Counted from the first letter of the stretch, positions 42,322-51,679 are shown. The stretch: DNA of 64,000 nucleotides from Hoeflea sp. (GCF_048261205.1 NZ_JBLXGF010000004.1), one strand, 5' to 3'. Translations and numbers: made by a program. The notes: generated by a model not told the origin, from the letters alone.

Positions 42322-43098
42322 TCACGAGCCCTTCGGCAGGTGGATCGAATTCGCCACCTCGATCAGATGCGGGGCGATTTCGGCGCGAACCCTGTCGACG
42401 CTCCATTTCAGGCTGGACACCGAACATTGCACCGTCGCCACCGGGCGACCGTCGCCGGACAGGACCGGCGCGGCGATGCCGATCTCGTTCATGATGTTCT
42501 CGCTGTGGGTCAGCCCGTAGCCGCAGGCGACCGCATCCTCGATGGCCTCGGCGATCTTGCGCCTGTCGGTCGTCGTCTTCGACGTCACAACCCGGACCGG
42601 CCAGGTCTCGACCGCCTCCTTGCGCTCCGCCTCGCTCATGCGCGCAATCATGGCGCGGCCGCTCGAGGTGGTGAGCGCCGGCAGCCGGCGCCCGGCGACC
42701 ATGGCGCCAAAGGCGGTCAGTTGCGTCGGGATGCGGATGACATAGACGATTTCGCGTCCCGCCAGCCGCGCGACATTGACCCGCTCGCTGAGCAAGCGGC
42801 CGAGTTCGATGAGTTTCGGCATGGCGAGCTGCACCAGCGGATCAGCCCAAAGATAGGCATTGCCCAGTTCCAGAAACTTGATCGAGGGACTGTAGCGCCG
42901 CGATTCCGGGTCCTTGTTCAGGTAGCCGACCTTGTGAAGCGTGTTGGTCAGGCGCTGAACCGCGCTCTTGTCGAGCCCGGTCAGTTCGGCGATCTCAGTC
43001 AGTCCCAGCACCGTGTGATGTTCGTTGAAGGCATGGAGGACCCGCATCCCCTTCTCCAGCGAACCAACAAACAAGGTGTCCTGTTTTTCTTTTGTCAA
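42322..43098 (-). CDS. IclR family transcriptional regulator
   Basis: SLEKGMRVL HTH, TSSGRAMIA, GIAAPV; TTG start with AGGAGAGG RBS gives 258 aa. Confidence 0.92.
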   Translation of the reverse strand: MTKEKQDTLFVGSLEKGMRVLHAFNEHHTVLGLTEIAELTGLDKSAVQRLTNTLHKVGYLNKDPESRRYSPSIKFLELGNAYLWADPLVQLAMPKLIELGRLLSERVNVARLAGREIVYVIRIPTQLTAFGAMVAGRRLPALTTSSGRAMIARMSEAERKEAVETWPVRVVTSKTTTDRRKIAEAIEDAVACGYGLTHSENIMNEIGIAAPVLSGDGRPVATVQCSVSSLKWSVDRVRAEIAPHLIEVANSIHLPKGS

Positions 43099-43199
43099 AG
43101 ATCCTCTCCTTTCGGCCTGCCCGCAAGGCGCGCAAGGACGTTGCGGGGTTGGGTAGACTACATTCTTGACACATTCCAGACCTCCCAATAGTCTAAACC

Positions 43200-43221
43200 A
43201 TAATACGGTGCTACGTATTAT
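43200..43221. promoter_or_regulatory. Palindromic operator, candidate IclR site
   Basis: ATAATACG-GTGCTA-CGTATTAT in the divergent promoter region. Confidence 0.6.
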
Positions 43222-43274
43222 AATATAATAAATGGGAACCAGAGGGGCCGGTTTCGTGCCGGTTAAGTGAGCAG

Positions 43275-48683: not shown

Positions 48684-48693
48684 AGACTAGGCC

Positions 48694-50268
48694 ATGAGCA
48701 ATTTTTCCCGCACCCAAACCGTGCGCAAGCACGTCATCGAGACAAAGGGCGGCATCGTCGCCTCGCAGCACCGGGTGGCCGCAGAAACCGGTGCTGCCGT
48801 GCTTTCCGCCGGCGGCGACGCGGTGGATGCAGCGGTCGCCGTTTCCTTCGCGATCGGTGTCGTCGAACCCTGGATGAGCGGACCTGCCGGAGGCGGCGCC
48901 ATGGTCGTGTGGCGCGAGAACAAGCAACGCGCCCATACCGTCCAGTTCGGCATGCGCTCGCCGGCCGGGCTCGATCCGGCCAACTATCCGCTCACGGGCG
49001 GCAAGACCGCGGGCGACCTGTTCCCATGGCCATCAGTTGCCGGAGACCGCAACATCCAGGGCGCCACAGCCATTGCCGTACCGGGCACCGTCGCCGGTAT
49101 GGAACTGGCGCACGCAACGTGGGGCCGGGCAGACTGGAAGGATCTCGTCCTGCCGGCAGCCGACCTTGCGGCGAAGGGGATGCAGGTCGACTGGTACGCC
49201 TCGCTGATCATCGCTTCGGTCGCCCGCGATCTGGCGGCGGATGCGGACGCGGCGGCGATGTTCCTCGACGACGGCACCTGGCCAAAATCAGCCGGCTGGA
49301 CAGCGATTTCCAACATCCGCCTCGACCAGGCCCGGATGGCCGACACCTTGCGGCGCATCGCCGATGCCGGCGCCCGCGACTTCTACGAGGGCGACATCGC
49401 AGCTGCCCTTGCCGCCGACGTCCAGGCCAAGGGCGGTTCGCTCTCGCGTGCCGATCTCGCCGCCTATCGGGCCAGGTTGACGCCGGCCCTCGACGTCTCC
49501 TATCGCGGTGGCACCGTTCATGCAGCGGCTGGGCTGACTGCCGGTGCCAATCTCGCCGAATGCCTGCAGATGATGGAATCGGCCTTTGTCCCCGGCGCTG
49601 CTCCCGATGGCACAAGCTATGCCGAGATGGCGCGGGCGCTCTCCGCCAGCTACGAACGGCGGCTGCGCGAGATGGGCGACACCGAGGCTGTGAACGCGCC
49701 CTCCTGCACCACCCATTTCAGCATCGTCGACCGGCATGGCAATATGTGCGCCGTCACCCAGACCCTGCTGTCGGTGTTTGGCTCGCGGGTGGTCTCGCCC
49801 TCCACCGGCCTTCTGATGAACAACGGCATCATGTGGTTCGATCCCGAGCCCGGCAAGCCGAATTCGCTTGCGCCGAACAAGGCCTGCCTGATGAACGTCT
49901 GTCCGGCGATCGGCGCCAAGGACGGCCGTCGCTTCGCCATCGGCGCTTCGGGCGGACGCAAGATCCTGCCGGCGGTGCTCAACCTCACATCTTTTCTGAT
50001 GGATTTCGACATGTCGCTGGAGCAGGCCTTCCACCATCCGCGCATCGACAACAGCGGCGGCGGCGCCATCATCACCGACGAGACGCTGCCGCCGGAAATC
50101 ATTGCTGCACTCGCGGCCGTCCATCCTGTCACGACCACGCGACGAACTGTCTTCCCCTATGCCTTCGCCTGCCCGGCGGGCGTGCTGCGGCGGGACGGAG
50201 TGAATATGGGCTGCACGGAAATCATGTCGCCATGGGGCGACGCCGTGCCCGAAACCGAAGGAGCCTGA
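48694..50268 (+). CDS. Gamma-glutamyltransferase-family Ntn hydrolase (atypical active site)
   Basis: [17 protein letters not shown], autoprocessing site [14 protein letters not shown]. Confidence 0.9.
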
Positions 50269-50269
50269 C

Positions 50270-51679
50270 TTGGCAAACCGTGACCGCGCCATCGCGCGCA
50301 TCGAGACCTATCTGACCAGCGGCGGCTACGAGACCGAGCTTGCGCGCATGCTCGCCTTCGAGACCGAGAGCCAGGAGCCTGCACGCCGGCCGGAGCTGAT
50401 GCGTTATTTGGTCGAGGAGATGGAGCCGAAGCTGTCCGCTCTCGGTTTCTCTTGCCGCATCATGGAGAATCCTGTCGACCGGACGGTCCCCTTCCTTTTC
50501 GCCGAGCGGATCGAGGATCCCGGCTTCGAAACCGTGCTGAGCTATGGCCATGGCGACGTCATCCGCGCCCAGACCGAGCAGTGGCGCGAGGGGCTGCATC
50601 CCTTCCGGCTGGAGCGCGAGGGCGATAGGCTCTACGGCCGCGGTACCGCCGACAACAAGGGCCAGCATTGCATCAACATCGCCGCGCTCAGAACCATCAT
50701 CGAGGAACGCGGCGCACTCGGCTTCAACTGCAAGATCATCATCGAGATGGGCGAGGAATGCGGCTCGCCCGGCCTTGCCGAGCTGTTCGCGCAGAACCGT
50801 GAGACCTTCGCGGCAGACGTGTTGATCGCCTCTGATGGCCCGCGCCTGCATCCCGAGCGGCCGACGCTGTTCATGGGTTCGCGCGGCGCGGTCAATTTCG
50901 ATCTGCGGGTCGAGCTGCGCGAAGGGGCCCACCATTCCGGCAACTGGGGCGGGCTGTTGCGCGATCCGGCCATCCTGCTCGCTCATGCCCTGGCTGCAAT
51001 CACCGACCGGCGCGGGCAGATCAAGGTGCCCGAGTGGCGCCCGACCAGCCTTACCGCAGCGGTACGCGAGGCGCTGAAGGACTGCCCGGTCGGCGGCTTC
51101 GACGGCCCGAGCATTGATACCGACTGGGGCGAGGAAAGCCTTAGCCCGTCGGAGCGGGTCTTCGGTTGGAACAGCTTCGCCGTGCTCGCCCAGACCAGCG
51201 GGGTGCCCTCGGCTCCGGTCAATGCCATCTCGGGACGTGCCGATGCCCATTGCCAGCTGCGCTATGTCGTCGGCACCGATCCCGATGACATTTTGCCGGC
51301 ACTGCGGCGCCATCTCGACGCAAACGGCTTCCAGTTGGTGGAGATCGTTCCCGCCGAGCGCGGCTTCTTCCATGCGACCCGGCTTGATCCAGACCACCCC
51401 TGGGTGGAGCGAGTGAAGGCATCCATTGAGGCAACAACCGGCAAGAAGACTGCCATCCTCCCCAATCTCGCCGGTTCCCTGCCCAACGAAACCTTTGCCG
51501 ACATTCTCGGCCTGCCGACGGTCTGGGTGCCGCATTCCTATCCGGGCTGCTCGCAGCACGCGCCGAACGAGCATGCGCTGCATTCTATGACCCGGGAAGC
51601 GCTGGCGATGATGGCCGGCCTGTTCTGGGACATCGGCGAAGCAAATGTCTCCCGCCGCTCCCAAGACATCGAGAGATGA
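50270..51679 (+). CDS. M20 family metallo-amidohydrolase/peptidase
   Basis: [33 protein letters not shown] start. Confidence 0.92.

Follow-up and report, generated by a model that had tools for sequence, protein, structure and literature searches.

Introduction

The gamma-glutamyltransferase (GGT) fold serves several reactions: besides the canonical GGTs (E. coli Ggt and the B. subtilis and B. licheniformis enzymes; MEROPS T03), it is found in HpxW, an oxamate amidohydrolase, in LmbA, a C-C bond-cleaving enzyme, and in CapD, a poly-gamma-D-glutamate transpeptidase. Here we describe a unit of eight genes from Hoeflea sp. (GCF_048261205.1, NZ_JBLXGF010000004.1), at positions 42322-51679 of a stretch of 64,000 nucleotides (the window, by which we mean the whole stretch of DNA that was analysed), in which a GGT-fold protein is encoded together with a peptide-type ATP-binding cassette (ABC) importer, an M20 metallopeptidase and an IclR-family regulator. 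The catalytic residues of this protein are those of the GGT family, while all six residues that correspond to the gamma-glutamyl binders of E. coli GGT are replaced, and similar replacements recur in a large branch of the family. The unit would, on balance, be devoted to the uptake and stepwise hydrolysis of an amide other than an ordinary gamma-glutamyl compound.

The donor pocket of the canonical enzymes is well described. S462 and S463 of E. coli GGT are reported to hydrogen-bond the carboxylate of the gamma-glutamyl group (PMC4568574). According to PMC8062742, activity is undetectable in the E. coli R114L and R114D mutants, D433N loses transpeptidation and gains glutaryl-7-aminocephalosporanic acid acylase activity, and the acylase activity of a B. 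subtilis triple mutant changed at the three amino-binding positions (E423Y/E442Q/D445N) is up 963-fold. As these published mutants show, loss of the amino-binding residues shifts the enzyme to acyl groups without an alpha-amino group. The protein described here has in common with canonical GGT the fold (TM-scores of 0.75-0.81 to the precursors 4y23 and 2e0w), the PF01019 domain, the Thr nucleophile, the residue equivalent to T409 and the GG oxyanion hole; it differs in its replaced donor pocket and in having neither a signal peptide nor a lid loop, and its identity to these enzymes is about 24-30%.

The closest parallel at the level of the whole system is GisABCD-Ggt of S. aureus, described in PMC10355420, in which a peptide-type ABC importer is encoded with a cytoplasmic GGT-family enzyme that cleaves reduced and oxidized glutathione (GSH and GSSG) inside the cell after intact import. 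In the description given there, the S. aureus Ggt is a proven GSH/GSSG hydrolase of ~75 kDa, whereas the present protein has 524 amino acids and a replaced pocket, and genes for an IclR regulator and an M20 dipeptidase-like enzyme are present here in addition. The importer has among its closest characterized relatives GsiABCD of E. coli and HbpA/GbpA of the Pasteurellaceae, which have the same Dpp/Gsi-type binding protein and permeases; HbpA/GbpA is reported to bind both GSSG and GSH (PMC3295651). Here, however, two separate ATPases take the place of the fused GsiA, and the Gsi equivalog cut-offs are widely missed. A similar logic, with a family 5 binding protein and ABC importer serving a cytoplasmic amidase that acts on a non-peptide amide, is seen in the operons of SBP_bac_5 importers and FmdA_AmdA amidases, which are reported to take up L-amino acid amides (bioRxiv 10.1101/2024.02.22.581678), although the amidase there belongs to another family and has no M20 partner, and the ligand specificity is not transferable.

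HpxW (5hft), LmbA (6j3a/6j3i), CapD (3g9k), the B. halodurans "cephalosporin acylase" 2nlz and the GGT-related T. acidophilum protein 2i3o all match the present enzyme structurally, and thus are precedents within the fold for reactions other than that of GGT. None is close, with Foldseek identities of 20-23% and scores of 24-38 bits for the small-subunit part. For HpxW, the scores are 28.1 bits for 5hft_B and 46.6 bits (E = 1.8e-11) for 5hft_A, and for 2nlz, which represents the class IV cephalosporin acylase/YwrD type, the small-subunit part reaches 38 bits.

Results and Discussion

A GGT-fold protein with a replaced donor pocket

The GGT-like protein matches PF01019 (Table 1) but falls below equivalog level, with 261.6 bits against a cut-off of 357.85 for TIGR00066 (EC 2.3.2.2/3.4.19.13) and 170 bits against 990 for PRK09615. 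An AlphaFold2 model based on 60 family members has high confidence (pLDDT 94.1, pTM 0.95), with a drop just ahead of T339, where a self-cleaved linker would lie. Searched with Foldseek, the model has the GGT fold (E-values of 1e-30 to 1e-37; TM-scores of 0.75-0.85 against full-length chains of the family), and its matches include the precursors of the B. licheniformis and E. coli enzymes as well as the "cephalosporin acylase" of B. halodurans and a GGT-related protein of T. acidophilum (TM up to 0.85), followed by LmbA, with HpxW at rank 50. Identities in these comparisons are 20-26% to the full-length chains (ranks 1-11) and up to 29% for separate large-subunit chains; we found no solved structure belonging to the clade of the GGT-like protein itself.

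Residues were mapped onto E. coli GGT in two ways, by HMMER comparison with the PDB entries 2e0w and 2dbu and the solved Bacillus GGTs, and by MAFFT alignment with the E. coli K-12 ggt product. The two agree, and both are anchored by the invariant neighbors N428-N429, F434 and P466. The nucleophile T391 is conserved as T339 (49708-49710), the helper threonine T409 as T357, and the oxyanion hole G483-G484 as G420-G421. The gamma-glutamyl binders, by contrast, are replaced without exception: the alpha-carboxylate binders R114, S462 and S463 by G86, M400 and N401, and the alpha-amino binders N411, Q430 and D433 by L359, G378 and W381. One arginine, R88, is located two residues beyond G86. Relative to E. 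coli GGT, the protein also lacks the lid loop and ~41 residues before the nucleophile. A sequence-only reading of this DNA had proposed a retained Thr nucleophile and GG pair and a missing glutamyl pocket, based on six segments, those of the pocket aligned by eye, and the alignments bear it out on both counts: all six segments are present in the translation of 48694-50268 (on the plus strand, QFGMRSP at 48943-48963, CTTHFS at 49705-49722, TQTLL at 49756-49770, NNGIMWF at 49819-49839, CLMNVCP at 49885-49905 and GASGG at 49942-49956), and the proper alignments leave none of the glutamyl-binding residues conserved. Considering the published mutants, the presence of L, G and W at the amino-binding positions leads us to expect that an acyl group without a free alpha-ammonium would be preferred; a carboxylate or carbonyl might still be held by R88 and the invariant N401.

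Pocket replacement across a large branch of the family

A word-index search scored 8000 candidates and gave 2961 relatives at E <= 1e-20, the best 120 of which are at least 63% identical to the GGT-like protein; where these relatives are named, they are called gamma-glutamyltransferase (family protein), gamma-glutamyltranspeptidase or glutathione hydrolase. An exhaustive search gave 20430 cluster representatives at E <= 0.001 and 1494 clusters (50% identity) at E <= 1e-30. For the branch alignment we used the 116 representatives of 480-720 amino acids among the 150 listed, 115 of which have the nucleophile Thr. Among these 115, the catalytic residues are mostly retained (T409 in 112, the GG oxyanion pair in 102), whereas D433 is found in none, Q or E at position 430 in none, N411 in one, R114 in two and S463 in four, and 77 have the composite pocket of a non-polar residue at 411, a small residue at 430, W433 and N463. 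The lack of the glutamyl pocket is therefore a trait of a large branch and not a quirk of a single gene, and these sequences look like those of functional enzymes that differ in the pocket, not like decaying ones.

The Hoeflea genome contains three PF01019 genes. One, on contig C23, is a canonical GGT with a signal peptide and the canonical pocket residues, except for E in place of Q430, as in B. subtilis GGT. Another, at C3 (~356.8-358.4 kb), encodes a cytoplasmic protein of 530 amino acids without a signal peptide, which is of the B. halodurans "cephalosporin acylase"/YwrD type and has S, F, R, S, H and T at the six E. coli pocket positions. Its small-subunit part scores 131.5 bits against 2nlz, as compared to the 38 bits of the present protein.

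Our literature search, which had subscription journals and some PMC manuscripts outside its coverage, found no paper on the GGT-like clade or the cassette. As judged from the sequences, this appears to be a widespread clade with a rebuilt acyl pocket, set in a conserved import and catabolic cassette, that has not been characterized before in the literature searched.

Organization of the unit

The eight genes (Table 1) were identified with both Pfam and NCBIfam, which confirms the regulator, importer, N-terminal nucleophile (Ntn) hydrolase and M20 enzyme named in the sequence-only reading. Except for the divergent IclR gene, all are on the same strand. From the first permease through the M20 gene, the junctions overlap or are separated by 1-10 nucleotides, as in one operon: the start of the first ATPase (ATG at 46711) overlaps the permease stop, the start of the second ATPase overlaps the stop of the first, and the M20 gene begins one base past the stop of the GGT-like gene. 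The DppB/GsiC-type permease is taken to begin at the ATG at 44894, although its longest open reading frame (ORF) runs from a TTG at 44882.

Table 1. Genes and putative control region of the eight-gene unit of Hoeflea sp. (positions in the window).
Feature	Position	Strand	Basis
IclR-family regulator, 258 aa	42322..43098	-	PF09339 + PF01614
Promoter-like box and palindrome, candidate IclR operator	43166..43219	+	Sequence, conserved in 8 loci
Periplasmic family 5 (peptide/nickel/opine type) solute-binding protein, signal peptide	43275..44789	+	PF00496 269.9 bits
ABC permease, DppB/GsiC type	44894..45811	+	PF00528 + PF19300
ABC permease, DppC/GsiD type	45815..46714	+	PF00528 + PF12911
ABC ATPase, DppD/OppD type	46711..47709	+	PF00005 + PF08352
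ABC ATPase, DppF/OppF type	47706..48683	+	PF00005 + PF08352
Cytoplasmic GGT-fold Ntn hydrolase, 524 aa, without signal peptide	48694..50268	+	PF01019 297.4 bits
M20A metallopeptidase, CNDP/Dug1 dipeptidase type (PRK07079), 469 aa	50270..51679	+	NF005478 717 bits

The M20 protein is firmly placed in its family, since its NF005478 (PRK07079) score compares with a cut-off of 330 bits and the PF01546 domain is present; the dimerization domain PF07687, at 21.1 bits, is just above its cut-off of 21. The metal-ligand motifs GHGD, GTADNKG, GEECG, ASDG and QHAPNE are all there and align with those of 2pok, so that the protein has the five metal ligands, the catalytic Glu and the dimerization domain of an M20A dipeptidase. 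Its nearest solved chains are 2pok, 4mmo, CNDP1/2 and Dug1, and it is nearest to enzymes of the CNDP, Dug1 and Sso-CP2 types. Given this kinship and the intact metal-ligand motifs, the substrate of the second step is likely to be dipeptide-like.

The specificity of the importer is less easily read. GsiB is the best NCBIfam match of the binding protein, yet all of the Gsi equivalog cut-offs are missed (GsiB, 151.8 bits against 594; GsiC, 268.1 against 463; GsiD, 217.9 against 484; GsiA, 329.2 against 1077), and the DppC/GsiD-type permease reaches no NCBIfam equivalog cut-off at all. The nearest solved chains to the binding protein are 5u4o, GsiB/YliB (1uqw) and HbpA (3m8u). Alignment is ambiguous in the loop whose Asp binds the ligand amino group in DppA; one Asp is invariant among 28 binding proteins of the cassette type, that of the window included. 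Both ATPases have an oligo_HPY tail.

The regulator has both the helix-turn-helix domain and the C-terminal effector domain of the IclR family. It stays below the cut-off of the PcaR/PcaU/PobR subfamily (TIGR02431), with 181.7 bits where 284.75 are required, and regulators of the Pca regulon are its nearest solved structures. Its gene is read from a TTG preceded by an AGGAG Shine-Dalgarno sequence; the longest ORF would extend to 43284, into the binding-protein gene. In the 176-bp divergent region between the two genes, a TTGACA box (43166-43171) is followed ~30 nucleotides further on by the palindrome AATACG-N6-CGTATT (43202-43219). Across eight aligned intergenic regions (from Stappia, Roseibium, a Rhodobiaceae metagenome-assembled genome (MAG) and Rhodospirillum sp.) CTTGACA is invariant and the palindrome is maintained, AT-rich, with near-identical arms and a variable center. 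We read it as a putative IclR operator.

Conservation of the cassette

Synteny was scanned with one genome per species in 80 loci having a GGT-like gene 50-85% identical to that of the window, neighbors being detected by tblastn with the window proteins. The closest of these loci is that of Stappia indica (85% identity). Of the 70 loci whose downstream sequence extends for 1.5 kb or more, 30 have an M20 gene directly behind the GGT-like gene. Both flanks are visible in 59 loci. The complete set in unchanged order was found in 24 of these, and one further locus lacks only IclR; in three others (L012, L040 and L053) the M20 gene is present and the ATPase criterion failed, and in one (L036) the GGT-like match is broken, with the M20 gene 338 nucleotides beyond. 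Cassette loci occur in Stappia, Roseibium, the Rhodobiaceae MAG, Rhodospirillum sp. and many Rhodobacterales, and the cassette is missing from the loci of Bordetella, Burkholderiales MAGs and Bradyrhizobium. No additional partner gene recurs: when the flanking ORFs of 26 cassette loci were clustered, the next family was present in at most 5 of the 26. Together with the tight spacing, the conserved promoter and palindrome, and the arrangements in the TM1040 megaplasmid and in G167 described below, this synteny supports the earlier proposal that the regulator, the importer, the Ntn hydrolase and the M20 enzyme belong together as a unit.

The pocket was compared in 76 of the 80 loci and the window, one locus having been left out because of an in-frame stop and three because their matches were partial. 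In all 30 orthologues adjacent to an M20 gene the pocket is identical (G86-M87-R88, L359, G378, W381 and L399-M400-N401-V402-C403), and so its replacement is more than chance. Another 13 aligned orthologues have M-N-V/I-C at 400-403 and lie outside the cassette, and the remaining 33 have x-N-Y-x at these positions.

The same components are found in other arrangements. In one genome (G167) the set is rearranged, in the order GGT-like gene, ATPase, ATPase, binding protein, permease, permease and M20 gene. A peptidase island is present in a distant alphaproteobacterium (G098, C1:2504000-2523500). There, four tandem PRK07079 M20 genes precede a GGT-like gene (44% identical) and an M81 MlrC-type peptidase, and are themselves preceded by two M20 genes of the ArgE/DapE type, an amidase-signature amidase and a class-III aminotransferase; a related family 5 binding protein and permease adjoin the island on the opposite strand. 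The GGT-like homologues of both genomes have L359, G378, W381 and N401 but lack R88. PRK07079 M20 genes above cut-off occur in 29 of 201 alphaproteobacterial genomes sampled across the class, that of the window included.

Plasmids also carry the GGT-like gene. Matches at E <= 1e-80 were found in 93 plasmid records, mostly of Pseudosulfitobacter (45), Sulfitobacter (14) and Tritonibacter. These plasmids or chromids, from roseobacters associated with algae, are large and for the most part non-mobilizable. The full cassette was checked on one of the plasmids, the megaplasmid of Ruegeria sp. TM1040 (NC_008043.1), where the genes follow one another as in the window and the enzymes carry the annotations "gamma-glutamyltransferase" and "M20 family metallopeptidase".

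Proposed function and alternatives

We consider it somewhat probable that the eight genes are a self-contained, IclR-controlled unit for the uptake and two-step hydrolysis of a peptide-like amide, one with an acyl part that bears no free alpha-amino group. The family 5 binding protein and the Dpp/Gsi-type importer would bring this amide into the cell intact. The cytoplasmic GGT-fold protein would cleave itself before T339, after which T339 and the G420-G421 oxyanion hole would hydrolyze one amide bond. Its acyl pocket would be lined by L359, G378, W381, M400 and the family-invariant N401, with R88 nearby, and since the amino-binding residues are replaced, the acyl group removed is probably not a normal gamma-glutamyl group; it would instead be N-blocked, deaminated, dicarboxylyl or similar, lacking a free alpha-ammonium. 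The CNDP/Dug1-type M20 enzyme would then split the remaining dipeptide-like product, or the two enzymes could act in the opposite order. The IclR protein probably represses the operon from the palindrome that closely follows the promoter, repression lasting until the substrate or a product binds the protein. Candidate substrates are glutamyl peptides that are N-blocked or deaminated, dicarboxylyl peptides, and isopeptides, among them the stem peptides of the cell wall.

Several observations weigh against this proposal. R88 might still reach a carboxylate, which would allow some gamma-glutamyl binding. The GGT-like and M20 genes are coupled in certain clades but not generally: of the 59 loci with both flanks in view, 30 are without the M20 gene as well as the ABC genes, and 19 of the 28 other genomes with a PRK07079 gene contain a GGT-like match (E <= 1e-60), the genes being within 10 kb of each other in only two, G167 and G098. 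The varied neighbors of the 13 M-N-V/I-C orthologues outside the cassette count on the same side, as does the fact that a search for activity, ligand or expression data on clade members found none. Finally, the nearest characterized relatives of the binding protein, GsiB and HbpA, bind glutathione, and the relatives of the M20 enzyme include Cys-Gly dipeptidases, which would fit ordinary glutathione use equally.

These last points lead to the alternative that the unit scavenges glutathione or other gamma-glutamyl peptides in the ordinary way, with GSH or GSSG imported, glutamate removed despite the odd pocket, and the M20 enzyme acting as Cys-Gly dipeptidase. The gene logic does fit the two steps of glutathione breakdown, GsiB is the best profile match of the binding protein and two glutathione-binding proteins (1uqw and 3m8u) are among the three solved chains nearest to it, CNDP2 and Dug1 are relatives of the M20 enzyme, and S. 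aureus GisABCD-Ggt, as described in PMC10355420, is a precedent for an importer with a cytoplasmic Ggt. We nonetheless regard this as unlikely. All six gamma-glutamyl binders are replaced, three of them by non-polar residues, whereas in E. coli substitution of R114 by L or D is enough to abolish activity (PMC8062742); TIGR00066, PRK09615 and every Gsi equivalog cut-off are missed; and the Hoeflea genome already carries a canonical GGT. A further alternative is that the GGT-like gene might have nothing to do with the import, being either a passenger or an enzyme of the class IV cephalosporin acylase, YwrD or HpxW kind that acts on some unrelated small amide. The fold is known to host other activities, the structural matches include HpxW, LmbA and the acylase of B. 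halodurans, and the 13 orthologues outside the cassette show that the gene can exist without it. In the window, on the other hand, the gene is co-oriented with its neighbors and nearly abuts them on both sides, and it is kept in the 24 full cassettes as well as in the rearranged set; moreover, its small-subunit part is distant from both 2nlz (38 bits) and HpxW (28.1 bits to 5hft_B), and the YwrD/acylase type is represented in this genome by the C3 paralogue. We judge this explanation to be very improbable, and of those discussed here, the least probable.

A narrower version of the proposed uptake and hydrolysis pathway would have the unit recycle N-acylated gamma-D-glutamyl peptides or isopeptides, for example the L-Ala-gamma-D-Glu-meso-diaminopimelate stem peptide or fragments of non-ribosomal peptides, with the GGT-like enzyme cutting the isopeptide bond and the M20 enzyme the dipeptide that remains. 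The loss of the alpha-amino triad, with R88 and the invariant N401 retained, would suit a glutamyl group acylated at its amine, the family member CapD acts on poly-gamma-D-glutamate, and the peptidase island described above, in which a GGT-like homologue occurs with an M81 MlrC-type peptidase, an amidase and six M20 genes, resembles one for unusual peptides. The cassette, however, is without an LD-carboxypeptidase, epimerase or amidase partner, the homologue of that island is only 44% identical and lacks R88, and nothing connects the cassette with cell-wall turnover. Both this general recycling role and its specific two-cut scheme seem improbable to us, though a shade less so than the passenger explanation.

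A bolder extension of the uptake and hydrolysis pathway is that the clade carries an unrecorded T03 reaction, in which an acyl group without a free alpha-amino group is removed from an imported pseudo-tripeptide, and that the cassette is a route for an abundant, unrecognized amide of marine or cell-wall origin. Candidates for the acyl group would be N-acylated gamma-D-glutamyl, deaminated or oxidized glutamyl, dicarboxylyl and pyroglutamyl-like groups. We offer this idea tentatively and think it doubtful, about on a par with glutathione scavenging. The name of GGT or glutathione hydrolase given to the clade is probably wrong as to function throughout the branch, and metabolic models in which its genes stand for glutathione breakdown may be in error. 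The dedicated binding protein and regulator next to the enzyme are a rare handle on the real substrate, as both are open to ligand screening. Many isolates of the genera in which the cassette is common (Stappia, Roseibium, Sulfitobacter, Tritonibacter and Pseudosulfitobacter) come from algae or seawater, and for this reason the compound may matter for the turnover of dissolved organic nitrogen.

Neighboring genes

The DNA downstream of the unit contains a module of flavin reductase, acyl-CoA dehydrogenase (ACAD)-like and alpha/beta hydrolase genes (51831-54494), which is on the opposite strand and convergent with the unit, followed on the same opposite strand by a Zn-dehydrogenase and a Liv-type ABC system. 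The sequence-only reading had suggested that the unit feeds this neighboring module, which it took to be aromatic. We reject a functional tie, because the module is convergent and its three genes were found by tblastn in none of the 80 related loci. As for the 12 loci without the cassette whose surroundings were examined with Pfam, the neighbors are mixed, and include a BCCT transporter with a sulfatase, a Rieske oxygenase, TctC with a polysaccharide deacetylase, a DAO oxidase and a thiolase.

Upstream of the IclR gene lie two candidate ORFs (40251-41030 and 41446-42006, both on the minus strand) without a Pfam match, and the G+C content of this stretch is lower (0.574 over 40001-42000). Beyond them is a sugar-utilization block that is unrelated to the cassette (30012-40243, minus strand). 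It comprises a CUT1-type ABC importer (a binding protein, two permeases and a MalK-like ATPase), a xylose-isomerase-like TIM barrel protein, a GFO/IDH/MocA oxidoreductase, an aldo-keto reductase, a GFA-family protein, a GH43 beta-xylosidase-like enzyme and a protein with PD40/WD40-like beta-propeller repeats.

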